A stretch of DNA of 64,000 nucleotides from a virus: positions 1-64,000 of IMG/VR virus record IMGVR_UViG_3300029444_000365. One strand, written 5' to 3'. The position numbers and the translations under genes are program-made. Positions 6,049 to 64,000 of the stretch are shown here, piece by piece; the stretch's first letter is position 1; each line of letters begins with the position of its first letter. The notes beneath the pieces are model-generated. The model was given only the letters and a program-made list of their open reading frames with translations, was not told the origin of the DNA and made no database searches.

Positions 6049-6789
6049 TCACATCCATTTATCAATCTCGCTAAACACATTGCCTAGCGAATCAACAATC
6101 GTCAGATCCGTATCTTCATTCATTAACACTTGAATTTTTTCCCTATTGATAATAACCAAATGCCTACCACTGAAATACGAAATATAATTCGCTGCTGGAT
6201 AAACTTTTAATGAAGTGCCACCAATAATCAACATTTCAGCATCTCGAATGGCTCTGATTGCCCTATTTACCGCATCATTAGGAAGATTTTCTCCATATAA
6301 AGTTACGTCAGGTCTAATCAGACCACCACATTCACACTTTGGGATAGCTTCTTTAGTGTTAAACAAGAAATCTGAATGATATTCCATTTTACATTTACTA
6401 CAATAATTCCTCTGAGTAGTTCCATGAATTTCAAATACATTCTTACTGCCAGCTTTTTGATGAAGCCCATCAATGTTCTGTGTAACAATAGCCTTCAACT
6501 TACCTATTTCTTCCATCTTAGCAAGTACCTTATGAGTAATATTTGGCTCAATATTTCTTGTATCCATCTTCTGACGATAGAACTCATAGAATACCTTTGG
6601 ATTGTTATATAAGCATTCTCGACTCAAAAGATACTCTGGCTCGTATCTATCAAACTGAACGTCATGCTGATTATATAACCCATCCTTAGAACGAAAGTCT
6701 GGAATACCACTTTCAGTAGATACACCTGCTCCACCAAAGAATACAATATTATTTGATTCTTCTATATATTCTCTTAATTTTTCGTACAT
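6049..6789 (-). CDS. SIR2-family NAD-dependent protein deacylase (sirtuin)
   Basis: GAGVSTESGIPDFRS, QNIDGLH, two CxxC zinc pairs (CSKC..CECG), GTS motif; 246 aa. Confidence 0.85.
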   Translation of the reverse strand: MYEKLREYIEESNNIVFFGGAGVSTESGIPDFRSKDGLYNQHDVQFDRYEPEYLLSRECLYNNPKVFYEFYRQKMDTRNIEPNITHKVLAKMEEIGKLKAIVTQNIDGLHQKAGSKNVFEIHGTTQRNYCSKCKMEYHSDFLFNTKEAIPKCECGGLIRPDVTLYGENLPNDAVNRAIRAIRDAEMLIIGGTSLKVYPAANYISYFSGRHLVIINREKIQVLMNEDTDLTIVDSLGNVFSEIDKWM

Positions 6790-9047: not shown

Positions 9048-9611
9048 TTATTCTCCTTCTAAATAACAGATTGGTACTTCTTTTGTAAGCCATACACCAT
9101 TTTGAGATAAAAAGAATTTATATCCGTCATTATACATATCTTTTGCTCGAACCTTATAAATAAACGGTTCTCCATGTCTACTGCCAACATTTGTTGCTGT
9201 TTCAATATCTTTTGATAGATGAACATATAAACGGCTCTTAGAGATTAATCCTTGTTTGTTGATTGAAGAACAATATTTGACACCTGTTCCATGATATAAA
9301 ATATCTGGTGGCATACACTCTTTTAATTCTACATCAACTTTTATAGAATGACCTTGATTTGCTCTTATAAGCGTCTTTTCTCGATTAAATGAATATCTCT
9401 GTTTAGAATCTTCTTCTACAATTTTCTCAAGCATTTTCATTGTAATCGTCTGAGTTTTATTGATTCCTTTTAATAGATCTGACACGTTAGCCCAACCATG
9501 TTTGTCTAATGTGATACCGATAACATCAGGTCTGTGTCTAAGAATTAATGCTATGTATTTGCTTAAATTATTTTGCTCTTTATTCGTCATAATGTTATCT
9601 CCATTCTCCAA
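9048..9611 (-). CDS. kptA: RNA 2'-phosphotransferase KptA/Tpt1 (NAD-dependent)
   Basis: LSKYIALILRHRP, HGT, RLYVHLS motifs; 187 aa. Confidence 0.8.
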   Translation of the reverse strand: MENGDNIMTNKEQNNLSKYIALILRHRPDVIGITLDKHGWANVSDLLKGINKTQTITMKMLEKIVEEDSKQRYSFNREKTLIRANQGHSIKVDVELKECMPPDILYHGTGVKYCSSINKQGLISKSRLYVHLSKDIETATNVGSRHGEPFIYKVRAKDMYNDGYKFFLSQNGVWLTKEVPICYLEGE

Positions 9612-10356: not shown

Positions 10357-12414
10357 TTAAAACTTAATCTTCATTACACGCTCTGTTGCGCCCTTAACCT
10401 TAACAACTAAATCTGCTCTCTTTGTCATAGAGAATCCAATTCCTGAAAGCTGATCATCAGTATCTTCTACATGGCACTTAGCACCTAAAGCCTCAAATAC
10501 TCTCTTGTGCTTTTCAAGGTCACTCTTTAAGAACTCATTGTAATAGCCATTAGGATCTTCGCTATTTACACAATCCTTCAGGAAAAAGAATAAATGTCTA
10601 TGACCAATTCCATCCTGCTCATCAAAATAATTTGGACTATAACTAATTACTGATACAGGAACAAACTGATTAGTGCTTACACCCCAAATCTCACGACTTG
10701 AGATAGATGAACTTCCAGATAACTTTTCCTTAATTGAGAAGTTGCCATTCTTGTCAAGTGTTACCTCTGCCACCTGAACTTTCTCACCAGTTCTCATAGG
10801 ATTGCTATAATCAAATGAATAAATCTCTCCATTGAACTCAACTTCTGCTCTAAATCCATGTCTTACTGCACCTGAATACTGATGTACAAAGAACTTATAA
10901 ACACCTGGTTTCATTCTTGACAGGTCTTCCCAAGTAATATTCTCTACTGCAACCTTTCTATCTGGATGAATAATATCAACGTCTAACTGACCACCCATTC
11001 TTGAAACACTTGGCTTTCTACAATTACTAAAGAAAATTTCATTCTCATCTGGCTCAATACAATGTGCATCAAGGTCGTAATTATCATGACCATCTTCGTT
11101 CCACTGAATAGAAAATCTGAGTACACCGTCAACATTACCGCCAGCAGCTTTTACATTCTGTTTCATATCAGAATCAGTAATGTTTCCTGAATAAGCCCAA
11201 GACAATCCATTATTCCACTTGAACATTGTCTTAGCGTCTGGATTAACAGGTGCAACCATAGAAACAAAATTCTTCTCATGCTTATTCTCTACAAAAGCTT
11301 CAATTTCTTTTGCGGTTGGAAGTACCTTATCAATGAAATCCTGTGCTGAAATCTCTTCAACCTTAGAAAACTTCTTAGGACTTACAGCAACATCCTTTTC
11401 CATCTGACCAAAAATATCATCTGCACCAACCATTCTTCTTGCAGCACTCTTATTTGAGAACAGTACATTATTTACAGTAATATCATTCAGATTAGCAAAT
11501 CTTCTCTGTAATGAATCCATATATCCAAGCTCTGTAATGGTCTTCTTTGCATCCTCAAGCATTTTCTTTGTAAAAATAGCCTTTGGTCTTTTATAGTTGC
11601 TCGGTGCTGTAATCTGCTCATACTTCTTAACTGCTGTGTCAAGATCCATATCCTCACTTACATTAATAAGAAGTGTTCCAATAGAATGATTTCTAATTCT
11701 ACCGATAGCCATACCTGCTGTTACCGACTTCTCCCAAGCATATAAATCCTTTTCAGTATCAGAAGTCAGCTTATCATATTCTTTCTTATACTTCTTGAAC
11801 TCTGTGAGTACACCTTTCCACTCTTCGCCCTTGTAAAGTGTATTTGAATTGATAAGTTCAAGAATTGTATCGAGTGCATCCATAGTAATTTCATCAAGAG
11901 AACGCTTAAATACATTTCTTGTGTCTCTGAACTGTCCCTTAACTTCCTCGTTTGAACGGCTACTTCTATTTACGAACTTGCTTGGAAGTTCTAAGAAAAA
12001 GTGATCCCACTGATGAGACTTTCCATTGATTTCCTCAAAATTAAAATCTGTACCAATCTTAGGGAACTTAGTTGTATAAATATCTGTAACTGTATGAGCT
12101 TTTACGAAAGCATCAAGTGCATCACATACTGGCTGATATGTTGTATCACCAAGATTCAGTTCCCAAATCGTATGAATCTGGTTATCCTTGATAGTTACAG
12201 CAGAACCAATATTCTTAATAAACTGTCTACAACAACTACAATCATGTTCTCTACGCTCTCTGAAAATCTCATTTGTACCAGCAGGGAAGCTATCAAGATA
12301 TGTATTCCATAATTCATCCTTATCTACATTTACCTCAAATAAATGTGTTGCCTCTTTCTGCATTTCATCGAAGTGCTTCTGTAATGCCTTCTTAAATTTC
12401 ATAAATCCATCCAT
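10357..12414 (-). CDS. large hypothetical protein (685 aa)
   Basis: long uninterrupted ORF; CSCC cluster near N-terminus; no family recognised. Confidence 0.6.
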   Translation of the reverse strand: MDGFMKFKKALQKHFDEMQKEATHLFEVNVDKDELWNTYLDSFPAGTNEIFRERREHDCSCCRQFIKNIGSAVTIKDNQIHTIWELNLGDTTYQPVCDALDAFVKAHTVTDIYTTKFPKIGTDFNFEEINGKSHQWDHFFLELPSKFVNRSSRSNEEVKGQFRDTRNVFKRSLDEITMDALDTILELINSNTLYKGEEWKGVLTEFKKYKKEYDKLTSDTEKDLYAWEKSVTAGMAIGRIRNHSIGTLLINVSEDMDLDTAVKKYEQITAPSNYKRPKAIFTKKMLEDAKKTITELGYMDSLQRRFANLNDITVNNVLFSNKSAARRMVGADDIFGQMEKDVAVSPKKFSKVEEISAQDFIDKVLPTAKEIEAFVENKHEKNFVSMVAPVNPDAKTMFKWNNGLSWAYSGNITDSDMKQNVKAAGGNVDGVLRFSIQWNEDGHDNYDLDAHCIEPDENEIFFSNCRKPSVSRMGGQLDVDIIHPDRKVAVENITWEDLSRMKPGVYKFFVHQYSGAVRHGFRAEVEFNGEIYSFDYSNPMRTGEKVQVAEVTLDKNGNFSIKEKLSGSSSISSREIWGVSTNQFVPVSVISYSPNYFDEQDGIGHRHLFFFLKDCVNSEDPNGYYNEFLKSDLEKHKRVFEALGAKCHVEDTDDQLSGIGFSMTKRADLVVKVKGATERVMKIKF

Positions 12415-12515: not shown

Positions 12516-12545
12516 GAGTTAGTAGGCTATGACACCTACTAACTC
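12516..12545. other. perfect 11-bp inverted repeat hairpin (GAGTTAGTAGG / CCTACTAACTC, 8-nt loop) at 3' end of transporter operon
   Basis: seen directly; T-rich only on plus side, so not a canonical minus-strand intrinsic terminator. Confidence 0.4.
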
Positions 12546-12550
12546 TTGAA

Positions 12551-12643
12551 TTATTTATTCTTCTTACGTTTTCCTACAATAAAACCTGCTCCAAAGCATA
12601 CACCAAGACAGATTACGAAAACTCCAATGTTTAATACAATCAT
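12551..12643 (-). CDS. small hydrophobic peptide (30 aa, MIVLNIGVFVICLGVCFGAGFIVGKRKKNK)
   Basis: AGGTGA RBS, single TM helix plus basic tail; below track cutoff. Confidence 0.3.
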   Translation of the reverse strand: MIVLNIGVFVICLGVCFGAGFIVGKRKKNK

Positions 12644-12651
12644 ATTGTCAC

Positions 12652-14235
12652 CTACTCAATAATCTTAAATGATACATCTGTTCTTCTATTCATTGCACGA
12701 TGTTCCTCTGTATCATTATCTATTACAGGATTGCTTGAACCGTTACCAACAGTTACGATTCTATCTGCTGAAATACCATTCATAATGAAGTAATTCTTAA
12801 CAGCTTCCGCTCTCTGGGCTGATAACTTCTGATTGTACTCGTCCTGCGGATCTGAATTTGGATTAGGATCTGTATTACCAGCAATCTCAATAATTGCTCC
12901 ATCGAGTACATTTGCAATATCAATAAATTTATTAAGCTCCTCGGATGCGGCGGCTGAATCTGTAAACTGGGCTGTATTCTTATTAAATGTTACCGAAGCA
13001 GATCCACTTAATAATGCCTCCGTATCCTGTACTTCCTGCTTATTATCATCTGTTACCTTTACTGTGTCTGTGTTAGATACATCTGTAGCATTAAACTTGT
13101 CTGCAATGGCATTAATATATGTATCATCAAAAATTGTATCTACTAAATCAGCATTTACAGTCTCACCAATTGATGTCCAAACATTGCACATATCTGAATA
13201 AATAGTCTTTGCTGTGCCATTTAATAAATCAGAATTGTCTTTCCAAGTTGTGAGTTTTGCAGTAGCTGCACTTCCTGCAATATCTTCATCAGATGCAGTA
13301 TTGAACATTGGCATTACTTCTCTGATTGCTGTAAACTCATTGTCGTACATATCGGATGCTTCAAGAGAACCCTGAACAAATTTCTCTACTATCTCTGGAT
13401 ATGCCTCTGCAAAATTCTTATCAAATAAAATTCCATCCATTACAAGATTTGTTGAGCTTGCTGTACTAAATAATACATGTGCATCTGTCATATTCTGTGC
13501 CTGTGTTAAATAAGGCTCCCATGTAGCAGCTACATCAACTTGTCCTGCAAAAAATGCTTTTGCTGTATCATCTGCTGTTGAGAATAATACAAGATTATCA
13601 ATAATATCAGATTTCTCATCGTCTGATAAATCAGAATTATTAACAAACCAAATAACTAATGTCTGTGCCTCTGAAAACTCAGGGACACCAATTTTTGCAC
13701 CAACTAAATCTTTTACTGAATTAATTGATGATTTGGCAATAATACCATCACCACCATTTGAGTAGTTTGTAATATATGGCATAATTACATCTTCACCAGC
13801 TTCTGTAAACTTTTGTGATAAAAATGCTGTTCTATTGATTGTATAGCCTGCCGCATTTAAATCACCTTTAATAAGGGCGTTGCTTGACTGTGTAGCATCA
13901 TTAATAACATTGATATTTACATTGATACCGAGTTTTCCATAAATAGAATCTGGCTGTGTTGTAAGTCCACCATTAGCGTCAATAATAGATTTCCAGCCAA
14001 TCCACTCATCTAATGAAAGATTAATAGTTCCGTCACTATTAGCTTTCTTTTTATTAGAACTAGAAGATGTTGTGCCAGTTACTTTGTTCCCTGCATTACT
14101 TATCGAAGTGTTACTCTTGGTTTTAATTAACCCTGTCTTTACACCAGCGAAAACACCACCACCAATTAATGCAATAACCAAAACCATAATTAAAATTTTT
14201 GAAGCTTTGGTAAGTCTAAATCTTTTTGTACTCAT
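12652..14235 (-). CDS. TM-anchored NMT1/SsuA-like substrate-binding protein fused to C-terminal OmpA-like peptidoglycan-binding domain
   Basis: N-terminal TM helix; SBP-like body; C-terminus AIIEIAGNTDPNPN...NQKLSAQRAEAVKNYF...NRRTDVSF matches OmpA/MotB C-domain consensus. Confidence 0.65.
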   Translation of the reverse strand: MSTKRFRLTKASKILIMVLVIALIGGGVFAGVKTGLIKTKSNTSISNAGNKVTGTTSSSSNKKKANSDGTINLSLDEWIGWKSIIDANGGLTTQPDSIYGKLGINVNINVINDATQSSNALIKGDLNAAGYTINRTAFLSQKFTEAGEDVIMPYITNYSNGGDGIIAKSSINSVKDLVGAKIGVPEFSEAQTLVIWFVNNSDLSDDEKSDIIDNLVLFSTADDTAKAFFAGQVDVAATWEPYLTQAQNMTDAHVLFSTASSTNLVMDGILFDKNFAEAYPEIVEKFVQGSLEASDMYDNEFTAIREVMPMFNTASDEDIAGSAATAKLTTWKDNSDLLNGTAKTIYSDMCNVWTSIGETVNADLVDTIFDDTYINAIADKFNATDVSNTDTVKVTDDNKQEVQDTEALLSGSASVTFNKNTAQFTDSAAASEELNKFIDIANVLDGAIIEIAGNTDPNPNSDPQDEYNQKLSAQRAEAVKNYFIMNGISADRIVTVGNGSSNPVIDNDTEEHRAMNRRTDVSFKIIE

Positions 14236-14250
14236 TCCATTCTCTCCTTA

Positions 14251-14988
14251 TTATTTGTTGTATTTTTTCTTTAAACTGTCTAAATAATCATTACTGCTAT
14301 TCTTTTTAGCTTCGACTTCTGCTTTTGCAAGTTTCGTAGACATCTTGTTATTATGTACTACTTTTGAACCCTCAACAATTGCATCTAAGTCTTTATTCTT
14401 ATCTCTGACAGAATCAAGAAGTTTATCAGTTGCAGTTACATTTTTTAACTCGTCCATATCATCATAGACTTCCTGTAACTGTTTCTTCACTTTCATATTC
14501 TCCACAACTTCCTTACTTTCTCTCTTTAATTTGCGGAGATTCTTTTCACACATTTCCTGTGCTTCTTTTGCAGTGTTAGCTGCGTCTTCATATGCTTTAA
14601 CTAATTCTGAATATCTCCTGATATCAGCCATAATCTCTTCTCTCTCATCAGCTTTTAACTGTGCTAACTCTATCTTATTTGCTTTTACAAGAGATTCACA
14701 TTCAGATTCGACCTTCTCAAGCTTTGCTTTGAGATTCTTCATATCTTTTTGTGCATTGCTTAATTTACCAGCAGCTACCTTGTAAGCATTATCCGCTTTG
14801 TTATAAGCGTCTTGTGCCTGATCAATTTTTTCACCATAAATAGCCTCCGCACCTTCTGGGGTTGTAGCCATATCTTTGATAAACAGTCTCGTAATTCCCG
14901 AAAATAATGTTCTTACTTCAGGAAATAAAATAAAAATCAAAATAATAACTGCAACTACCAAAATCACAATAAGTTTTCCAAGATCCAT
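14251..14988 (-). CDS. PspA/IM30-like coiled-coil protein with N-terminal TM helix
   Basis: TM helix then LFSGITRLFIKDM..PEGAEAIYGEKIDQAQ resembling PspA N-terminus; long coiled coil. Confidence 0.45.
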   Translation of the reverse strand: MDLGKLIVILVVAVIILIFILFPEVRTLFSGITRLFIKDMATTPEGAEAIYGEKIDQAQDAYNKADNAYKVAAGKLSNAQKDMKNLKAKLEKVESECESLVKANKIELAQLKADEREEIMADIRRYSELVKAYEDAANTAKEAQEMCEKNLRKLKRESKEVVENMKVKKQLQEVYDDMDELKNVTATDKLLDSVRDKNKDLDAIVEGSKVVHNNKMSTKLAKAEVEAKKNSSNDYLDSLKKKYNK

Positions 14989-15518
14989 TAATTGTCTCCT
15001 CCTTCAATAAATTTAATTAATCCAGAAATTCTACCAACTTCTGTATTAATACTATTCTCTGAAACTTTCATCTCTGACTGCTGTTCAGAAATTTCTTTTT
15101 CCAATCTTGCAATCTCTTTTTTATGATTCTCAATTTCAGTTTCCTTATCAGCGACATTGGCATTTCCATCATCTAAGATTTTTGCCAATACACTATTTAA
15201 TACATCCACTCTCTGTTCGCCATCAAGTGTTACATCAGTAACCGTTAAGCCGAACACTCCAAGAGTTGCTAACACTGAACCTCTCTTTGTCTCTGTAACC
15301 ATTTCTTTTGGAAGAGAATTAATCAGTTCTTCAATTTTGAAAATTGATTTTGACCTATCAGATAACTCATTCTGAGCATAAATATCATCAATAAGAGTAT
15401 CTGTATGTACCTCGTCAAGTTCAACTGGAACTGTACTATCCTCTACAGAATAATCAGTGCCTACATCATAATTCTCTTCTTCTGGAACTTTCTCTACGAA
15501 AAAGTCTCTAAATCCCAT
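14988..15518 (-). CDS. hypothetical acidic coiled-coil protein (176 aa)
   Basis: ORF, 1-nt overlap with downstream gene. Confidence 0.5.
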   Translation of the reverse strand: MGFRDFFVEKVPEEENYDVGTDYSVEDSTVPVELDEVHTDTLIDDIYAQNELSDRSKSIFKIEELINSLPKEMVTETKRGSVLATLGVFGLTVTDVTLDGEQRVDVLNSVLAKILDDGNANVADKETEIENHKKEIARLEKEISEQQSEMKVSENSINTEVGRISGLIKFIEGGDN

Positions 15519-15535
15519 TTTGTTTCCTCCTTAAA

Positions 15536-16147
15536 TTAAAATTCTATAATCACGTCACACATTTTTTGTGCTTCTTCTTTGCTATGTGTAACCATAATTA
15601 TTGTGTTATTTGTTTCTTTATGCTGCTTGATAATCAAATCTTGCATTTTTTGTCTAGTTTCAATATCTAATGCAGATAATGGTTCATCCATAAGAATTAT
15701 TTCTGGATTCATAAATAATGTTCTTGCCAAAGCAAGTCTTTGTCTCATACCGCCTGATAGTTGTTTTGGATATTTATTTTCGTTATCTTTCAATCCAACA
15801 ATAGAAATCATTTCTTTTGCTCTATCAATATCACACTTATTTATTCTCCCTTTGACTTTCTGTGCTATCAGAATATTATCCAAACACTTTAACCAATCAA
15901 ATGAAGTATAATTTTGATGCATCATGTAAATATTATTTTTACTTGCCTTAGTAACTAATTCTCCATTTACAACTACATTTCCACTTAAAGGCTTAATAAG
16001 ACCTGCGATTGTTCTTAACAAAGTTGTTTTCCCACAACCAGATTCACCTAATATCCCATAGATCTTAGGATCAAATTGATAGTTGAAATTCTTCAATAAA
16101 GGCTTGTCTCTGCTATACCCTGTATATAACTCATTTAACTTAACCAT
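15536..16147 (-). CDS. ABC transporter ATP-binding protein
   Basis: Walker A GESGCGKTT, signature LSGGMRQR, Walker B ILMDEPLSALD, H-loop VTHS. Confidence 0.8.
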   Translation of the reverse strand: MVKLNELYTGYSRDKPLLKNFNYQFDPKIYGILGESGCGKTTLLRTIAGLIKPLSGNVVVNGELVTKASKNNIYMMHQNYTSFDWLKCLDNILIAQKVKGRINKCDIDRAKEMISIVGLKDNENKYPKQLSGGMRQRLALARTLFMNPEIILMDEPLSALDIETRQKMQDLIIKQHKETNNTIIMVTHSKEEAQKMCDVIIEF

Positions 16148-16886
16148 TTATATACCTCCATTTAAAAATGTGTTTTACTAACCATTTTGCAGAAAAATCA
16201 AATATAACACTTATAATCATGATTACGATAATAGCCATAAAAACCAAATCTGTTCTTCCTCTTGAAGAAGATTGTTGAATTATATAACCCAATCCATATT
16301 TTGCATTAATTGTTTCTGCTACTGCTATATATGTAAATCCAATTCCATACATCATGATAAAACTATTTAATACTCCTGGTAGAGATGCTGGTATCTGTAT
16401 TCTCCAAATAGTTTGTATCTTATTCATTCCGATTGTTAATCCTGTATCAATCAAATCACTACTGACTTCCTCTAAACATAAAATAACTGAAGGCATCATG
16501 TATACAAAAGTTGCGATAAATAAAAATACTATTTTCATCATTTCGTCTATACCAAACCACATAATCAGTAGAGGATAAAAAGCTGTGACAGGAATGTATC
16601 TCATAACACTGATAATCGGATTTAATATATCTTTTGCTACTTTTGAGTTATAAACTAAAATTGCAATAGGAAATGCAATAAATCCTGATACAAAAGTTGC
16701 TATAGTTATTCTCAAAAACGAATATTTAATAGCCATTATCAACTGTCCAGTTTTCAACATTGCAATTAAATCTTTAAATACTGTCTTTGGATCTGGAACA
16801 AATAATTGATTTACATGTTGTGAAGCAATACTCCAAATTATAAAAATAGTCATTAGTAATGCTATTCTTTTTAAAATAATTTTCAC
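16140..16886 (-). CDS. ABC transporter permease, NitT/TauT (SsuC/TauC) family
   Basis: 6 TM segments, EAA-like loop VAETINAKYGLGYII...RGRTDLVF. Confidence 0.75.
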   Translation of the reverse strand: MKIILKRIALLMTIFIIWSIASQHVNQLFVPDPKTVFKDLIAMLKTGQLIMAIKYSFLRITIATFVSGFIAFPIAILVYNSKVAKDILNPIISVMRYIPVTAFYPLLIMWFGIDEMMKIVFLFIATFVYMMPSVILCLEEVSSDLIDTGLTIGMNKIQTIWRIQIPASLPGVLNSFIMMYGIGFTYIAVAETINAKYGLGYIIQQSSSRGRTDLVFMAIIVIMIISVIFDFSAKWLVKHIFKWRYING

Positions 16887-19171: not shown

Positions 19172-19246
19172 CTAGGCTGGTGGGACTTGAACCCACAAAA
19201 CCTGCGGTCAAAGCGCAGTGCGTCTAACCAATTTCGCCACAGCCCA
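19172..19246 (-). tRNA. tRNA-Gln (anticodon UUG), no encoded CCA
   Basis: hand-folded cloverleaf: acceptor UGGGCUG/CAGCCUA with U1-A72, U8, D-loop GG, anticodon stem CUGCG/CGCAG, loop CUUUGAC, T-arm GUGGG-UUCAAGU-CCCAC, G73. Confidence 0.7.
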
Positions 19247-19289: not shown

Positions 19290-19883
19290 TTACTGGTCTG
19301 AATCAGCATCCTTTGTAACTACAGTATCGCTACCCTGTACTGTAACCCATCCATGTTTAAGTCTTGCTTCTGCCTCTTTCATACGAATGAGCTGATCAGT
19401 AATTGAACTGTTAATCTTTGCATTTGCGTCTGCCTCTGCCTCTGCTGCGATAACCTTTGCGTCTGCATCACCCTGAGCTTTTGTAACCTCTGCTTCAGCG
19501 TCAGCTTTTGCCTTATCAATATTTGTCTGATTCTGAATTGCCTGAGTCTCTGCGTCCTGTTGAGCCTTAATCTTAGCATTTATAGCTTTCATTGTATCTT
19601 TATCCACATCAATATTGATTAAAGATACGTTGCTAATTGTAATACCATACGGCTCAAATTTCTTTGCAAGATAATCTGAAACTGCACTATTAATATTCGC
19701 TCTTTCAGAACCAAGAATATCGGATACTTTGTAATTTGCAACAATCTCTTTAGTCCAAGAAACAATATTAGGTTTGATAAAACTATCTCTTACCTCTTTA
19801 CCACTCTGACCTTTAAATCTTGTAAAAACGTCTGCAACACTATTTTGTTTATACTGGTATGTATAAGTAAGCTCTAAAGTCAT
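19290..19883 (-). CDS. SPFH/band-7 (HflC/stomatin-like) protein, C-terminal part (frame B of a frameshift-split gene)
   Basis: TASSSEGKSMTLELTYTYQY..VADVF band-7 core, Ala/Glu/Lys-rich tail. Confidence 0.6.
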   Translation of the reverse strand: MTLELTYTYQYKQNSVADVFTRFKGQSGKEVRDSFIKPNIVSWTKEIVANYKVSDILGSERANINSAVSDYLAKKFEPYGITISNVSLINIDVDKDTMKAINAKIKAQQDAETQAIQNQTNIDKAKADAEAEVTKAQGDADAKVIAAEAEADANAKINSSITDQLIRMKEAEARLKHGWVTVQGSDTVVTKDADSDQ

Positions 19884-20167
19884 TGACTTACCCTCTGATG
19901 AACTTGCTGTAAAACTATCATCGTCTGGTGAATCTCCTTTTTAGAAGCTGTTAGATATGACTGCTCAAGACCAACTGTATATAATGTTGTCTTTACCATT
20001 GGACTCTTCCAATGCCAACCTTGATCAAGTACCTTTTTCTCTACTCCACCGTTCGCATTGTACTGAACTGCTGCATAGCCAGCAGGTACTCTTACTAAAG
20101 ATTTCATACATATGATTACTCCAATTACAAGTACAATTGCTGCTACAAATCCTCCTAGTTTCTTCAT
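19880..20167 (-). CDS. SPFH/band-7 protein, N-terminal part (TM helix + start of band-7 domain)
   Basis: MKKLGGFVAAIVLVIGVII TM, VPAGYAAVQYNANGGVEKKVLDQGWHWKSPM; joins frame B by a -1 shift at CTAAAAAG (19938-19946). Confidence 0.55.
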   Translation of the reverse strand: MKKLGGFVAAIVLVIGVIICMKSLVRVPAGYAAVQYNANGGVEKKVLDQGWHWKSPMVKTTLYTVGLEQSYLTASKKEIHQTMIVLQQVHQRVSQ

Positions 20168-21815: not shown

Positions 21816-23264
21816 TTATGCATTTGCCATCTTATCAAAACTTCTCTTCATGAAGTCATAATTTACCTTCTGTGAAGAGCTAAATTTCTTCTGATTTTTG
21901 TATTTATTAATCCATTCCTCAAACTTGTCCTCATTCTCATTCTTGCAAGCATAAGCCATTAAAGCAATTAATGCCATCTGACACTTCTGATATAGTGGAA
22001 TATCTATTTTTATCTGATTATGATTAAAACAATACTCAACTAAATCTGTATATTCTTCAACATCCTCATTTGTCACTTCAGAATCTGCATTCTCCTGAAC
22101 AAAGGAAAGAATGCTTTCTTCCGTATTATCTTCAACATTTTCTTCCGTATTATTATTCTCTATTTCCTTGCTATTTGTTTCTGCTGTATCAATATATAAA
22201 AAATCGTTCATCAAAGCTGTATATGTATTAATTTTAGCAACTACAAGTTTTTTATCTGTAGTACCAGACTCTTTATTTAACGAATCGTAACTGACACCAT
22301 TAACATCAATACTATGTAATTTTCCTGATAACTCATGAATAAAATCTGCAAACTTGCTATCTTCTAAACCACATTTTGCAAATCTACTAAATACTGTCAG
22401 CCATACAGGAATATCTTTTTTAACAAGAATATCTTTACAAGTATCTTTACAAGCCGCTTCGATTCTTTGAAAATATTCATGGATTGTATTAAACTCTTCG
22501 ATATTACTGTTATCTTCGAGATAATCACATATTTCTTTTGCACCACGTTTATAGTCATCAAAATGAAAAACATTCATAACAGATCTGCATACACTCTGCA
22601 TATATTCTCCGTTTTTTCTGGCAGTATCAGAATACTCAATACTATTTTTAAAGAATCCTTCATCGGCAATGTTTTTAATTTTTCTTGCATATGTAGGAAT
22701 CCAAGTCAACGCTCTCTGACTTGTATTCATTCCTCTTTGTACATTCAATTTTCTTACCAATTTACTTACCTTTTTCATATCACAATTTTGATATGTGGCA
22801 ATTCTAAGCTGATAATTGTCAAATCGTTTCTTCAGTTCTTTTGGAAAATCATCATATGTTTTATTTTTAATATCAAATGTTTTCTTTTCCCATACAAAAT
22901 TCCCATCATCATCTTTTAGAAATTTACCATTTTCGTCTACTTGCTTTTCCTGGTACTCAATTTCACTATCTTCAATAGCACCAGTAAATTTATGATTTCC
23001 ATATCTAATCTGCATCAATGCGGTTGTTCTCTGAAGACCATCTACAATATATTTCTGTACAATATCTTCATTTAAAGGAATTTCGGCTAAAATTAAAGGT
23101 GGAAGATAATCACCAGTTAAGATCGTAACACCGATTCCATTAACAAATGGTTTGTCGCTACAGAAATACCTCTGTACATCCTGATTGTCATTAACATCTC
23201 CATCTTTTACCTCACTGGTATAGTTAATCAATGGAATATTTTCTTCTCTTACTTTCTTTGCCAT
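21816..23264 (-). CDS. DUF262-like (GmrSD N-terminal, DGQQR-motif ParB-fold) protein, 482 aa
   Basis: IVDGLQRTTALMQI = DGQQR signature of DUF262; long acidic C-terminal region. Confidence 0.6.
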   Translation of the reverse strand: MAKKVREENIPLINYTSEVKDGDVNDNQDVQRYFCSDKPFVNGIGVTILTGDYLPPLILAEIPLNEDIVQKYIVDGLQRTTALMQIRYGNHKFTGAIEDSEIEYQEKQVDENGKFLKDDDGNFVWEKKTFDIKNKTYDDFPKELKKRFDNYQLRIATYQNCDMKKVSKLVRKLNVQRGMNTSQRALTWIPTYARKIKNIADEGFFKNSIEYSDTARKNGEYMQSVCRSVMNVFHFDDYKRGAKEICDYLEDNSNIEEFNTIHEYFQRIEAACKDTCKDILVKKDIPVWLTVFSRFAKCGLEDSKFADFIHELSGKLHSIDVNGVSYDSLNKESGTTDKKLVVAKINTYTALMNDFLYIDTAETNSKEIENNNTEENVEDNTEESILSFVQENADSEVTNEDVEEYTDLVEYCFNHNQIKIDIPLYQKCQMALIALMAYACKNENEDKFEEWINKYKNQKKFSSSQKVNYDFMKRSFDKMANA

Positions 23265-24588: not shown

Positions 24589-24715
24589 CGTTAGTGGATT
24601 AAACTATGGTAGAACTATAGCAGCTACACATTCTGCTCTTACAAGGCAATATGTATGTACAAAGAAACAAGTACCTTGCGTACTGCACTTACATCGGGTG
24701 TGATTCAGTGCATAA

Positions 24716-24787
24716 CGGGGCTACTGGGATTCGAACCCAGAAATACATGGATCAAAACCATGTGCCTTGCCATTTGGCGATAACCCT
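24716..24787 (-). tRNA. tRNA-Gln (anticodon UUG), no encoded CCA
   Basis: AGGGUUAUCGCCAAAUGGCAAGGCACAUGGUUUUGAUCCAUG...GGGUUCGAAUCCCAGUAGCCCCG; close to bacterial tRNA-Gln, unpaired 1:72, G73. Confidence 0.75.
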
Positions 24788-24845
24788 ATAATTTATTAAA
24801 TTTTGATTAAATATGTGAAAAATATGCTGAATTGCTTGAATTTAA

Positions 24846-26092: not shown

Positions 26093-26285
26093 ATTTAACG
26101 AGATCAAATGGTTGCACTTCCATTGCTTTAGCAACCAAATCAAGTACAGCTAAGTCAGGAACAGCACTTCCATTTTCCCATTTACTGATTGTACTTGGTG
26201 CAATGTCAGACATTTTCGCAAGCCCTCTTACTGTTATTCTCTTTTCAGTTCTGATTTTCTTTCCAATATATTTAACCATAATCAC
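26082..26285 (-). CDS. XRE-family HTH transcriptional regulator (67 aa)
   Basis: RGLAKMSDIAPSTISKWENG; 3' end overlaps convergent XRE gene by 11 nt. Confidence 0.65.
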   Translation of the reverse strand: MIMVKYIGKKIRTEKRITVRGLAKMSDIAPSTISKWENGSAVPDLAVLDLVAKAMEVQPFDLVKFIY

Positions 26286-27310
26286 ATCTCCATCAATTTC
26301 TCTTTCATTCCAACAGCTCCGTTTGCATAATTATTAACTGTTGTATTTACACTACTATGCCCCAACTGTTGTTGCACAAATGCAAGATTTCCATTCTGAT
26401 TCATTATACTAGCATAATAATGTCGCATCATATGTGGAGTAATACCATTTCCATAATTCTCAAATATCTGTTTGATATTTCTTTCCGTGGTACGTGTGCC
26501 ATTCTTATTAATAAAAACTGCTTCTTTGTCTACAATATTATTCAATGTGTTTCTATACTCTAGCCATTCTCTTAATGCTTTCAGAGCAGATCCAGTAAGA
26601 TATACAGGTCTTTTTTCAGTTTCTCTTTGATATCCTTTTGGTAAAACCATAATATGTGACATATCATTAAGATCAATATATTCACTATTTTCATCTAAAT
26701 GCAAATCTGATAAATCCAAACCAGCAAGTTCAGACTCTCTTATTCCAGTTCCTCTTAAGACACGAAAAATAGCAATATTCCTATTCCTTACACATTCATC
26801 CTTTTTCCACATTATTTTTTCTTCCATACCATTAAGCTGATTTTCTGTTGGAAGTTTTTGTGTTAAGTTGTTTTTAGAAGATATCCCTTTATATTTTATT
26901 TGTTTACTAAAATCTTCCATACTGTTATAAAGTTCTCTCAATAAACATTCTCTATATGAATATACATTTTTTATAAAACTTTTTATAATATTCTTTCTTG
27001 TTTCCGTTGTGGTTGGCGACATTCCATTTGTTTCCTTATATCTAAGGTATGAACTAATATTTTGTGGTCGCAAGTCGCTAAAATCAGAAACTTCTATTTC
27101 AGAAATTGATTTCTTATTAATAATATTACTTTCAATCAACCACTGTAAAAAATCTTTAATTGCTACTAAATAATTTAACGCTCCGTTCTTGCTTTCCAAC
27201 TCATTCAAGTAATCTCTTAAAAACTGTGGTGCATTTAACTCATCCAACTTCCTATTAAGCTTTTCAGCATTTTTATTTTGCACTTCTATCTTATAACACA
27301 TAATTATCAC
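26282..27310 (-). CDS. int: tyrosine recombinase / phage integrase
   Basis: C-terminal HMMRHYYAS...LGHSSVNTTVNNYAN (HxxR...Y) catalytic motifs; 342 aa. Confidence 0.8.
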   Translation of the reverse strand: MIIMCYKIEVQNKNAEKLNRKLDELNAPQFLRDYLNELESKNGALNYLVAIKDFLQWLIESNIINKKSISEIEVSDFSDLRPQNISSYLRYKETNGMSPTTTETRKNIIKSFIKNVYSYRECLLRELYNSMEDFSKQIKYKGISSKNNLTQKLPTENQLNGMEEKIMWKKDECVRNRNIAIFRVLRGTGIRESELAGLDLSDLHLDENSEYIDLNDMSHIMVLPKGYQRETEKRPVYLTGSALKALREWLEYRNTLNNIVDKEAVFINKNGTRTTERNIKQIFENYGNGITPHMMRHYYASIMNQNGNLAFVQQQLGHSSVNTTVNNYANGAVGMKEKLMEM

Positions 27311-55532: not shown

Positions 55533-56651
55533 ATGGAGAATAAAACTATAGGTACATCATACATGTACCTAAATGAAACCATCAATTTAAAACATATGTA
55601 TTTAAATCAACCAATAACAATCAAACAAAAGAAAGAAGGAATTATTATAATTGGGGTATATTCTATAACAAATTTGAAAACTAAAAAATTATATATTGGA
55701 GAAAGTCTTGATATTGATAAAAGATGGATTAACCATAAAAATGATCTTTTAAATAACCAACACGCTAATTATTATCTTCAACAAGATTTTAATAAGTTTG
55801 GGAAGGCATTTTTTAAATTTGAAGTTCTGCAAGAAGTTGAAAGAGATAGTATCACTATTACTCAATCCAAATTATTGATGTTAGAAAATGCTTATATAGA
55901 AAAATATAAAAATGAAGATTATGAATTATATAACATAGAAAATACACTAGAAGATGTTCTTTCAAATAAAAGGAAATTATTGGTTTGCGAAGAAATTGCA
56001 AATTATGTTGTAGTGTCTCAATTTTTAAGAAATAAATATGTATATGATTATACAAATAAAAGATTTAATTATTGTCAAAGAGATACAATTGAAAATTTAA
56101 TATTATCTAATTCTTCCATCAAAGGGAAAGAAAAAGCAAAGCAAGTTGCAAACATAATATTAAAAGAGTTAATTGATCAGAATTTATATGAAAACTTTAT
56201 AATAGAAAACACTTACTCTATTTATCTATATCATAAAATTCAAGAACGTAAAATTATAGAAATTAATTCTAAAGGTCGAGAATATATATTAAATCATTAT
56301 GACTTTAATTCGTTTTTATTGAGAAAAAGAACTTCTGAAACCAAATTTTATATACAACAATATCCCTCTGAAAAGAAAATTAAACCAGAAGATCAAAATA
56401 GAATACAAGATGTTTGGCATAAACTTAAAGATAAATGCATTTTACCACCAGAAAATAAATACAATGATTTTCGAGATATGCTTATAAAATTAAATTTAAT
56501 TATTATTGATAATAATAAGAGAACACGAGCAACTGAATTTGCAATGAAAAATAAATATTTTTTAGTTGTTAAATATAATAAAGCTAAAGATATTTATCAA
56601 TATGTTATATCTCAAGATGGTTTAAGGTATATTTTAGCAAATATAAAATAA
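55533..56651 (+). CDS. GIY-YIG homing-endonuclease-like protein (372 aa)
   Basis: GVYSITNLKTKKLYIGESLDIDKRWINHKN = GIY...YIG..R..H/N motif; long DNA-binding-type tail. Confidence 0.7.
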   Translation: MENKTIGTSYMYLNETINLKHMYLNQPITIKQKKEGIIIIGVYSITNLKTKKLYIGESLDIDKRWINHKNDLLNNQHANYYLQQDFNKFGKAFFKFEVLQEVERDSITITQSKLLMLENAYIEKYKNEDYELYNIENTLEDVLSNKRKLLVCEEIANYVVVSQFLRNKYVYDYTNKRFNYCQRDTIENLILSNSSIKGKEKAKQVANIILKELIDQNLYENFIIENTYSIYLYHKIQERKIIEINSKGREYILNHYDFNSFLLRKRTSETKFYIQQYPSEKKIKPEDQNRIQDVWHKLKDKCILPPENKYNDFRDMLIKLNLIIIDNNKRTRATEFAMKNKYFLVVKYNKAKDIYQYVISQDGLRYILANIK

Positions 56652-59526: not shown

Positions 59527-59991
59527 ATGGCTGGTATAGTTGAAAAAGAAACCAATTTTTATCTATATAAGATTATAGATAAAGACGAATTAGTGTATAT
59601 TGGGAAATCAACTAATATTGATAATAGAATTGAAGTTCATAGCGTTATAAATAATCATTTTGATAAAAACACGTATTTTATATGTAGAGGAGAAAGTATA
59701 TCAAATTTGGTTATTTATATTGCAAATGTTCCTGACGAGTATCTTTTGTCAATATATGAAATAACATTAATTTCAAAATATAAACCACTATATAATAACA
59801 GCGACAAGTATGATACAAAACATCTATTAAAGTTACCAAAAATAAATTGGTTTCCATATGTATCAAAAGAAAATTGTGAAGCAATTTATAACATGAAAAC
59901 AGGCAAGATTATTGATACTTGTTTAATAGATACACCACTAAAAAGATGGAATATTTTAAAAGATTTACATATGGAGGAAATTAAATGTTAG
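59527..59991 (+). CDS. small GIY-YIG-like endonuclease (154 aa)
   Basis: NFYLYKIIDKDELVYIGKSTNIDNRIEVH; AAGGAGGA RBS. Confidence 0.55.
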   Translation: MAGIVEKETNFYLYKIIDKDELVYIGKSTNIDNRIEVHSVINNHFDKNTYFICRGESISNLVIYIANVPDEYLLSIYEITLISKYKPLYNNSDKYDTKHLLKLPKINWFPYVSKENCEAIYNMKTGKIIDTCLIDTPLKRWNILKDLHMEEIKC

Positions 59992-63615: not shown

Positions 63616-63689
63616 CGCGGAATGACGAGCAATGGAAGCTCACTTGGCTCATAACCAAGAGTATGCAGGTTCGAGTCCTGTTTCCGCAA
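63616..63689 (+). tRNA. tRNA-Met/initiator-like (anticodon CAU), no encoded CCA
   Basis: anticodon stem CUUGG/CCAAG with loop CUCAUAA, T-arm GCAGG-UUCGAGU-CCUGU, acceptor CGCGGAA/UUCCGCA with C1:A72 mismatch (initiator-like), D-arm GAGC/GCUC; D-region offset unresolved by hand. Confidence 0.5.
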
Positions 63690-64000
63690 CTCTCCTACTT
63701 TTTGTAGGACGGTCGGTTTCGGATCGTGAGTTGTTGAAACTCAAAATAAACTTAGTAATAAGGATAAAGCAGGAATGTCTTTAGTTCGCATAAGACACTG
63801 CGACTGCGCATAGTAGTTTGACGGAAAACACAGATAATCTATACCAAACCTAAAACCAGAGGGCTACTGCTAATGATATGGCTTGGTAGGGGCGATGAAA
63901 AACGCTCTGTATTAACATGGAAACATGGGTATGATTACTGTCTTATTGGTGCGATTTCCGCAAGAAAAAGTGCTGATATTGATTGTTGCAACGTTTCTTA

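Follow-up and report, generated by a model that had tools for sequence, protein, structure and literature searches.

PspA and Vipp1 make up the bacterial branch of the ESCRT-III membrane-remodelling superfamily. Here, we describe a phage-borne cassette in which a PspA-like protein with its own transmembrane (TM) anchor is encoded together with an ATP-binding cassette (ABC) importer and a substrate-binding protein (SBP) fused to an OmpA-like peptidoglycan-binding domain (SBP-OmpA). The cassette is located on the minus strand at positions 12516-16886 of a 64,000-nucleotide (nt) stretch of viral DNA (IMG/VR record IMGVR_UViG_3300029444_000365, positions 1 to 64,000 of that record), and this whole stretch is termed the window. 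We tentatively propose that the cassette proteins form one envelope complex, quite possibly joining solute uptake with PspA-type membrane stabilisation and so sustaining the infected cell or lysogen.

The closest described systems are those of Ravi et al. 2024 (mSystems, PMC11237479). Some bacterial operons described there join PspA/Snf7 to an ABC ATPase, a permease and PBPB+OmpA; the order listed in Table S3 for Candidatus Handelsmanbacteria (OGG56892.1) is X-PspA-(PBPB+OmpA)-permease-ABC ATPase-TM+Snf7-AAA+, a variant operon is given for Archangium gephyra, and longer operons combine PspA and TM-Snf7 with a double AAA+ ATPase. A link of membrane remodelling with solute transport was proposed there, and phages are not mentioned. 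Compared by published gene order only, the first five positions match the layout that we found in Lak megaphages and Bacteroidota. By contrast, the published operons carry separate TM-Snf7 and double AAA+ ATPase genes; the window cassette has no such genes, and none lie beside the phage and Bacteroidota cassettes inspected. The cassette is further unlike these operons in that the PspA-like protein is itself TM-anchored, an acidic protein is its constant partner and the carriers are phages and Bacteroidota. The cassette is thus a variant of a computationally noted system, and what is new is its carriage by several unrelated groups of large phages as well as by Bacteroidota.

The cassette also has features in common with four better-known types of system. 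Effectors of the Psp and Lia systems (Escherichia coli PspA with PspBC, Bacillus subtilis LiaH with LiaI, and cyanobacterial Vipp1/IM30) have the same alpha1-alpha2/3 hairpin and EDP-type start of helix alpha1 as the cassette protein, which is predicted to be cytoplasmic and membrane-proximal as they are. The Psp and Lia systems use a separate partner protein, whereas the anchor of the cassette protein is a covalent N-terminal TM helix; unlike the canonical systems, the cassette carries no PspF or LiaRS regulator, and its PspA-like protein shares an operon with a transporter. In the folds of permease, ATPase and binding protein, the cassette agrees with NitT/TauT importers (TauABC, SsuABC, ThiXYZ, NrtABCD), but the scores fall far below equivalog cut-offs, the binding protein has a TM anchor and a fused peptidoglycan-binding domain, and the ATPase has no regulatory domain. 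From the OmpA-like peptidoglycan anchors (MotB/PomB, TssL, YiaD, Pal, and ZorB of Zorya), the fusion protein has the TM anchor, linker and C-terminal OmpA-like domain, including its conserved D...R peptidoglycan-binding motif; it differs from MotB-type anchors in that a whole solute-binding domain is inserted between these parts and no MotA/ZorA-type channel partner is present. Phage-borne binding proteins such as cyanophage PstS are an established type of auxiliary gene, and phage-borne ABC components are common to the cassette and to such uptake genes (PstS; the PHROG 'ABC transporter' morons, phrog_293). The cassette differs from these in being a complete transporter with envelope proteins, kept as a fixed module across unrelated phage groups. 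An earlier note, made from the sequence of this stretch alone, had called the arrangement not a standard transporter layout, which we judge fair.

Phage cassette proteins fall into PHROGs families of unknown function (phrog_25518 and phrog_33389), and the phage G record is annotated only with 'ABC transporter' and 'OmpA/MotB domain'. No paper treating the cassette was found in literature searches on phage G and jumbo phages, megaphages and Lak phages, phage PspA/ESCRT-III and the NCBI product name, and the cassette is not mentioned in the main text of the phage G multi-omics paper.

Results and Discussion

The minus strand at 12516-16886 was found to carry six open reading frames (ORFs) followed by a hairpin. 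The order permease, ATPase, acidic coiled-coil protein, TM PspA/Vipp1-like protein, SBP-OmpA and 30-amino-acid (aa) TM peptide is the one that the earlier note gave, the elements lie at the coordinates given there, and domain searches agreed with both. The features are as follows (pI, isoelectric point; AF2, AlphaFold2).

16140-16886, minus strand: permease of an ABC importer (type I, BPD_transp_1; NitT/TauT-like), 248 aa, GTG start, Pfam PF00528
15536-16147, minus strand: ABC ATPase, core of the nucleotide-binding domain (NBD), 203 aa, Pfam PF00005, phrog_293
14988-15518, minus strand: acidic cytoplasmic protein, 176 aa, pI 4.3, generic coiled-coil matches
14251-14988, minus strand: TM-anchored PspA/IM30/Vipp1-like protein, 245 aa, PspA_IM30 match, AF2 hairpin
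12652-14235, minus strand: SBP fused to an OmpA-like domain, 527 aa, matches to OmpA, NMT1 and NMT1_2
14140-14211, minus strand: N-terminal TM signal-anchor of SBP-OmpA (residues 9-32), AF2 helix
13111-14028, minus strand: NMT1/TauA/SsuA-type periplasmic-binding-protein domain of SBP-OmpA (residues 70-375), by Foldseek
12667-13014, minus strand: OmpA-like peptidoglycan-binding domain of SBP-OmpA (residues 408-523), PF00691
12551-12643, minus strand: 30-aa single-pass TM micro-protein, MIVLNIGVFVICLGVCFGAGFIVGKRKKNK, own ribosome-binding site, conserved position
12516-12545, minus strand: perfect 11-bp hairpin with an 8-nt loop, directly after the last ORF

Based on sequence, the cassette was shown to encode a complete, intact-looking type-I ABC importer of the NitT/TauT lineage plus envelope partners. 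A GGAGG-type ribosome-binding site lies ahead of each of the six ORFs and the gene junctions measure -8, +17, -1, +15 and +8 nt, with the ATPase gene overlapping the permease gene by 8 nt and the start codon of the PspA-like gene overlapped by 1 nt by the stop of the upstream ORF. The ORFs therefore form one translationally coupled operon. Compared with five relatives, each of the six ORFs, the 30-aa peptide included, had a ratio of nonsynonymous to synonymous substitution rates (dN/dS) of 0.04-0.19, and all six are under strong purifying selection. These ratios, and the recurrence of the gene set in more than 120 independent loci, place the ORFs beyond chance.

The recurrence of the cassette was examined at the protein level, at which alone relatives were found; megablast of the cassette against 50,697 phage records gave no match. 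The phage records with an SBP-OmpA match were those of Bacillus phage G, with gp249 (48% identity over 99% of the length) and the paralogous gp250, of a 735-kb uncultured phage and of a scaffold from a human faecal phage, together with every one of the collection's 15 Lak megaphage records. In IMG/VR, 201 relatives of the binding protein were detected on contigs of up to 215 kb, and a second scan, for which the Lak and 735-kb phage proteins served as seeds, yielded 43 loci; their contigs range from about 12.5 to 553 kb, and the majority exceed 100 kb. When 131 loci were compared by tblastn, SBP-OmpA was found in all 131, the permease and the PspA-like protein in 123 each, the ATPase in 122 and the acidic protein in 116, with most gaps falling at truncated contig ends.

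Two layouts were distinguished. The order permease-ATPase-acidic-PspA-SBP is that of the window, the Clostridia phages and phage G, and the order acidic-PspA-SBP-permease-ATPase is that of the Lak megaphages, the 735-kb phage and other IMG/VR contigs of up to 553 kb; the trio acidic-PspA-SBP is contiguous in both. The layouts were linked by direct tblastn matches for the permease, ATPase and SBP-OmpA, and by hhalign for the PspA-like protein (95%, E 3.7e-8) and the acidic protein (93%, E 2.4e-7). In phage G, for which a complete genome is deposited, the neighbours (permease gp243, ATPase gp245, gp246, gp247, gp249/250) follow the window order with two extra small genes, namely gp244, which encodes a small hydrophobic protein, and gp248; gp249 and gp250 are SBP-OmpA paralogues in tandem (locus L001, 8007-11212). 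In the distant relatives the cassette is almost the sole thing in common with the window, and the flanks differ.

The module is also common to cellular Bacteroidota, which the earlier note had missed. Bacteroidota homologues of the Lak-type SBP, named 'phosphate ABC transporter substrate-binding/OmpA family protein' by NCBI, were found with all five genes, in the Lak order and in chromosomal context. The copy of Dysgonomonas sp. 521 lies between genes for a rhomboid protease, seryl-tRNA synthetase and glycoside hydrolases, those of two Saprospiraceae metagenome-assembled genomes (MAGs) between aspartate-semialdehyde dehydrogenase and glycosyltransferases, and that of a Bacteroidales MAG amid lipid and glycan enzymes. 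Because these loci lie among housekeeping genes, a cellular origin is indicated for them. The Dysgonomonas and Lak proteins were found to be 56% (SBP), 36% (PspA-like) and 30% (acidic) identical, and Dysgonomonas proteins matched the phage profiles at 1e-113 and 3.5e-50. This similarity indicates that the module moved between Bacteroidota and their huge phages. The version in the Clostridia phages and phage G is a rearranged, more distant branch, for which no clearly cellular copy was found, and the window cassette is a phage copy of an old five-gene module. Taken together, the co-occurrence of the five genes in 116-131 of the 131 loci, the contiguity of the trio in both orders, the homology of the layouts component by component, the conservation of the cassette where the flanks are not conserved and the dN/dS values argue for functional coupling of its parts.

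The transporter components were assigned by profile searches. The permease matched Pfam PF00528 (BPD_transp_1) with an E-value of 1.6e-22 (80.6 bits, cut-off 26.4) and carries an EAA-type coupling loop, DTGLTIGMNKIQTIWRIQIP; its best NCBIfam matches were TauC (2.2e-32), SaoP and SsuC, all under the equivalog cut-offs (112.6 for TauC compared to a curated 342). The ATPase matched Pfam PF00005 (ABC_tran) at 3.4e-29 (102.6 bits) and phrog_293 at 2.3e-64. Its motifs are intact (Walker A GESGCGKT, signature LSGG, Walker B IILMDE, H-loop TH), and it consists of the NBD core only, without a C-terminal regulatory domain. SBP-OmpA scored above the Pfam cut-offs for OmpA (PF00691, 9e-18, 64.9 bits compared to 27.2), NMT1 (30.2 bits, cut-off 20.5) and NMT1_2 (27.9 bits, cut-off 24.7), and matched phrog_25518 at 9.4e-250; its NCBIfam match, SsuA_fam, reached 69.4, below the curated 163.5. 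The NitT/TauT-type importer and the SBP-OmpA fusion proposed in the earlier note were borne out by these matches and, for the binding protein, by the structural comparison that follows.

The AF2 model of SBP-OmpA, with a predicted local distance difference test score (pLDDT) of 83.6, comprised a TM helix (residues 9-32), a serine-, threonine- and asparagine-rich disordered tether (residues 32-65, pLDDT < 50), a two-lobed domain (residues 70-375), a linker and the OmpA-like domain (residues 408-523); no lipobox was present in the sequence. Compared to the Protein Data Bank (PDB) by Foldseek, the binding domain matched TauA (6ssy) first, with an E-value of 9.7e-16 and a TMt of 0.76; TssL and an uncharacterised chain came after TauA, then SsuA, and further fold matches (PqqT, Thi5, ThiY, NrtA and CmpA) were at about 10-15% identity. 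Assignment of a substrate from fold matches was dropped, as TauA, SsuA, PqqT, ThiY, Thi5 and NrtA all lie at about this level. The OmpA-like domain matched Rv0899/ArfA best (5.9e-12), and YiaD, Pal and MotB were also among its PDB matches. Among 50 homologues from phages and cells, whose two branches are about 24% identical overall, the polar residues T131, S158, G160, D162, D266, D332 and Y345 were invariant and sit at strand ends and helix starts, and the peptidoglycan-binding motif GNTD...LSxxRA was likewise invariant. We infer that these residues mark a conserved ligand site and the motif a functional wall anchor; the binding protein is predicted to be tethered at both ends, by its TM anchor and by the OmpA-like domain on peptidoglycan.

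A less probable explanation of these features is a plain auxiliary nutrient importer, which would import, for the synthesis of phage DNA, a limiting compound that contains phosphorus, sulfur or nitrogen (one like phosphonate or phosphate, a sulfonate, nitrate or a precursor of a vitamin), with the PspA-like and acidic proteins as assembly chaperones or regulators that have no membrane-protecting role. The complete and intact appearance of the transporter and the conserved cleft residues are in keeping with it, as are matches of B-type SBP homologues to the Phosphonate-bd and OpuAC models, the 'phosphate ABC transporter' name at NCBI and the general precedent of PstS-like proteins in phages. 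However, this explanation does not account for a peptidoglycan anchor and PspA-like and acidic proteins that match the transporter in conservation, the PspA-like gene being under the strongest constraint of all; one lineage keeps the rest of the cassette without an ATPase gene in it; and no NCBIfam equivalog cut-off was reached by the cassette transporter proteins for any substrate class. The substrate suggested in the earlier note, of the hydroxymethylpyrimidine (HMP) or nicotinate type in view of neighbouring genes related to nicotinamide adenine dinucleotide (NAD), found no backing: these neighbours do not travel with the cassette (in phage G their place is taken by ligases and gyrase, and in the Lak phages by other genes), and the SBP is about equally distant from TauA, SsuA, PqqT, ThiY and NrtA.

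The PspA-like gene is the most constrained of the cassette (dN/dS 0.04-0.05). Its product has a TM helix at residues 2-20, a second, putatively amphipathic helix at residues 22-40, which occupies the place where alpha0 would be, and then a long helical hairpin. In the AF2 model (pLDDT 70), the hairpin was formed by helices H43-101 and H105-227 with a turn of pLDDT 85-93. When a family profile was compared to the PDB, the top nine matches were all Vipp1/PspA (E 1.2e-6 to 1.8e-4), in agreement with the TM-anchored PspA-like protein of the earlier note, and the alignment began at the EDP motif, the start of helix alpha1, which reads TPEG in the window protein. Foldseek placed Vipp1 (6zvr) at the top for the AF2 model, and E. 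coli PspA (4whe) matched with a TMt of 0.76 and a root-mean-square deviation of 1.6 A; the E-values were weak (0.025-0.1), as is usual for helical hairpins. Pfam PspA_IM30 was matched by 20 of 39 diverse family members, at best with 7.7e-13. By profile and model, membership of the window's branch in the PspA/Vipp1 superfamily is well supported; we infer, with more reserve, that the Lak-type and cellular branch belongs there as well.

SPFH proteins tether PspA in B. subtilis. A Band_7/SPFH gene at 19290-20167 (minus strand) of the window was considered as a conserved part of the cassette and rejected, as such a gene was within reach in only 12 of 144 loci. It is split into ORFs of 95 and 197 aa in the window and likewise in one relative (L007), and is intact with 292 aa in two others (L006 and L008).

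The acidic protein has 40 aspartate and glutamate compared to 18 lysine and arginine residues (pI 4.3). Its N-terminal peptide, MGFRDFFVEK, is amphipathic; an acidic linker leads from there to a core that is conserved (SIFKIEE..LPKEM..TKRGSV..LGVFGLT), and the C-terminal part is a coiled coil. Beyond generic coiled coils, no family was found for it in Pfam, NCBIfam, PHROGs with function, PADLOC or the PDB. The family comprises 356 clusters at 50% identity, all of about 170-200 aa and none with fused domains, and the gene has a dN/dS of 0.07-0.17. A diverged copy of the PspA-like protein was ruled out as its source (hhalign 10.6%). In relatives the N-terminus reads MGLFEKLGLVEK, MAGLFERMGLV, MAKKSFFERIGVV, MGLFEKLGLV or similar, and closely resembles the start of Vipp1 helix alpha0 (MGLFDRLGRVV). 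Lak-type and Bacteroidota ATPases (L003, 10678-11667; L004, 9529-10686; L142, 5004-5954) were observed to carry N-terminal extensions of about 60-150 aa that are acidic or of low complexity. Those of the phage copies start with an amphipathic peptide (MSDFKTLFG, MNFFNRGKE) resembling that of the acidic protein, and that of Dysgonomonas starts with MEDRNSISDIF. We take the N-terminal peptides of the acidic proteins and Lak-type ATPases to be candidate membrane-binding or docking peptides.

These peptides bear on another explanation, which we regard as unlikely, namely that the cassette encodes an ATP-driven envelope-remodelling machine for membrane repair, vesicle formation or lysis timing, in which the ABC ATPase and permease would be the motor of an ESCRT-III-like polymer, in place of a Vps4-like AAA+ protein, and SBP-OmpA the wall strut. 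Such a role would be consistent with the absence from the cassette of the AAA+ ATPase of the related PspA/TM-Snf7 operons of Ravi et al., with the shared kind of amphipathic peptide at the start of the Lak-type ATPase extension and with the tethering of the binding protein at both ends. It is opposed by the permease, which has the fold and coupling loop of ordinary type-I importers, unlike the mechanotransmitting FtsEX or MacB of general knowledge, and by the conserved polar cleft residues, which argue for ligand binding.

The carrier of the cassette was characterized from the remainder of the window. An ORF at 59985-62753 (plus strand) encodes a 922-aa homologue of YonO, the SPbeta-type single-subunit RNA polymerase (phrog_8308), 43-49% identical to proteins of Psychrobacillus phage Perkons, Clostridium phage D-1873 and SPbeta-like Bacillus phages and also matching Enterocloster phages. 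A tyrosine integrase gene (phrog_1, 2e-32) is at 26282-27310 (minus strand), inside a long minus-strand block. This polymerase and integrase identify the window as a large temperate phage of the SPbeta-like kind, with gut Clostridia (Lachnospiraceae/Oscillospiraceae) as hosts, and its identification as a 'huge phage' was rejected on the same grounds. The cassette is flanked on both sides, on the same strand, by phage-type genes, and its composition is uniform with that of the flanks; with the YonO-like polymerase and the occurrence of the same cassette in phage G, these findings confirm phage carriage. By a scan of 185,579 species genomes (one per species) for the F-type cassette, seeded with the close-relative alignment A5, the full cassette was detected in ten Clostridia genomes, including isolates of Acetatifactor muris, Lacrimispora amygdalina, Hominicoprocola fusiformis and Dysosmobacter segnis, and several of these genomes hold further window phage genes nearby.

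Many metagenome contigs carry the same proteins amid genes typical of large phages, namely those for a CCA-adding enzyme, C5 methylase, SIR2, Tpt1 and nicotinamidase-like proteins. Metagenome contigs of 490-774 kb, in all probability host chromosomes that contain the prophage, encode identical proteins. These long contigs would be the ground for regarding the region as host chromosome beside a prophage, which the earlier note had set as the finding that would refute it. We consider this explanation refuted and its probability next to negligible: phage-type genes of the same strand and composition lie on both sides, the GC content and composition of the cassette are uniform with those of the phage flanks, the cassette was found on 201 and 43 IMG/VR viral contigs and in phage G, and the sole F-type copies among the 185,579 species genomes come with further phage genes known from the window.

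The temperate carrier (with its integrase), the presence of the cassette in isolate genomes and the envelope location of the proteins would suit a lysogenic-conversion or superinfection-exclusion device, expressed from the prophage and altering the envelope to block other phages, as would the occurrence of an OmpA/MotB-type anchor in Zorya and weak ZorB domain matches. We nevertheless hold this to be quite improbable. PADLOC gave only generic ABC-ATPase and MotB-domain matches and no specific defence family, so that the superinfection exclusion suggested in the earlier note is left without support; the cassette is also present in phage G and Lak megaphages and, chromosomally, beside Bacteroidota housekeeping genes; and it is embedded in, and co-oriented with, a long minus-strand block of phage genes, with no sigma-70-type promoter detected upstream by promoter scan. 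The term moron, also used in that note, does not fit the cassette for similar reasons: its GC content (0.28-0.35) is like that of the flanks (about 0.31), it has neither an upstream promoter of this type nor a canonical terminator, almost every related locus has it, and no other block is as well conserved among distant relatives, whose flanks differ.

The evidence leans towards the envelope-stress reading, and the idea of an envelope-stress function, raised by the earlier note, fits the PspA-like protein. In the proposed complex, the tethered binding protein would capture a small, probably charged solute in the wall zone and hand it to the permease, with uptake powered by the ATPase. The anchored PspA-like protein would polymerise at the cytoplasmic face beside the transporter and keep the membrane tight and energised, and the acidic protein may act as its recruiter or regulator. 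By this means a large phage would keep a cell with a stressed envelope supplied and maintain its proton-motive force, either throughout a lengthy and costly infection or in the lysogen.

Several findings count against this proposal. In the domain search, in which OmpA and NMT1 passed their cut-offs, the PspA_IM30 match of the window protein reached 27.0 bits, below the gathering score of 33.9, while covering positions 13-217 of the 220 of the profile. A profile built from the Lak-type and cellular PspA-like proteins alone gave no PspA match in the PDB, and only 6 of 23 of these proteins match Pfam PspA_IM30, with no other family recurring. The identity of the SBP with binding proteins of solved structure reaches only 10-15%, and physical interaction among the cassette proteins is suggested by synteny only. 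In addition, in MT835556 (L002, 1469-5528) and a Peptococcaceae MAG (L139), the permease, acidic, PspA-like and SBP-OmpA genes are kept with no ATPase gene in the cassette, and the gap between the permease and acidic genes is only about 216 nt in this lineage. Another locus (L044, 7123-7983) has a deletion/fusion ORF that combines the start of the ABC ATPase with the C-terminal part of the PspA-like protein, and its acidic protein gene is missing. Uptake may thus be dispensable in some phages.

The 3' end of the operon was found to carry two small elements. The 30-aa micro-protein starts 8 nt past the SBP stop and has its own ribosome-binding site and a dN/dS of 0.04-0.19; 75 of 130 loci, nearly all from the Clostridia-phage group, have a conserved small TM ORF in this position. 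The hairpin at 12516-12545, GAGTTAGTAGG-tgtcatag-CCTACTAACTC with 11 perfect pairs, is the longest perfect hairpin within the 64-kb window. It is not followed by a T-run and was not called by the terminator scan. A conserved terminator role was rejected, as most relatives have no perfect hairpin there and no U-tract is present; the hairpin is probably a 3'-end or stabiliser structure. In one relative (L063), a 10-bp hairpin lies about 110 nt past the stop codon of SBP-OmpA, the place equivalent to that of the window hairpin; its loop is nearly identical (TGTCAGAG compared to TGTCATAG in the window) and its stem entirely different, which hints that some members of the family conserve a structured 3' element.

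Other genes were noted in the neighbourhood. Directly downstream of the operon, at 10357-12414 (minus strand), is a gene for a 685-aa protein (DUF8224 by precomputed Pfam; phrog_1735, 6.4e-268) that adjoins the cassette in close relatives and is absent from the phage G locus. The NAD-related genes, on the minus strand at 1308-1817, 6049-6789, 9048-9611 and 116-745, encode isochorismatase/nicotinamidase-like, SIR2 and Tpt1 RNA 2'-phosphotransferase proteins, plus DUF5662; a related locus (L005) has NAPRTase, NadD-like and NAD synthase genes downstream in addition, and upstream of its cassette, at a distance of a few kb, it encodes an integrase, helix-turn-helix proteins and a PemK toxin. The gene at 21816-23264 (minus strand), whose 482-aa product matches GmrSD_N (DUF262-type) weakly, is conserved in close relatives, again a few kb upstream of the cassette. 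A GIY-YIG-type homing endonuclease gene (phrog_7168, 2.6e-15) is at 55533-56651 (plus strand), near the strand switch at about 53 kb, and two tRNA-Gln(TTG) genes and one tRNA-Met(CAT) gene are found at 19172-19246 (minus strand), 24715-24788 (minus strand) and 63616-63690 (plus strand).

Conclusions

The cassette bears on the open question of how PspA/Vipp1 proteins are targeted and regulated without a Vps4-like ATPase, for its PspA-like protein has a permanent membrane anchor and is tied genetically to both an ABC transporter and an anchor in the wall. The module has been kept through transfers among Bacteroidota, Clostridia phages, Bacillus phage G and Lak megaphages, and this conservation across unrelated carriers indicates that its parts work together and matter for fitness. 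At NCBI, the gene set has so far been known only as 'phosphate ABC transporter substrate-binding/OmpA family protein' and hypothetical proteins.

It is conceivable, if improbable at present, that the cassette represents an envelope machine common to large-genome phages and Bacteroidota, in which a wall-strutted ABC transporter is coupled to a membrane-anchored ESCRT-III/PspA polymer and perhaps drives or gates it, as a Psp-like system of a new type. If this were true, the largest phages would repair or reshape the host membrane with an ABC ATPase in the role of a Vps4-type AAA+ protein. The system is testable, as phage G is cultured, Dysgonomonas has a chromosomal copy, and prophage-bearing isolates exist (Acetatifactor muris DSM 23669, Hominicoprocola fusiformis, Dysosmobacter segnis and Lacrimispora amygdalina). 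Its function would show what very large phages do to the envelope of their hosts.

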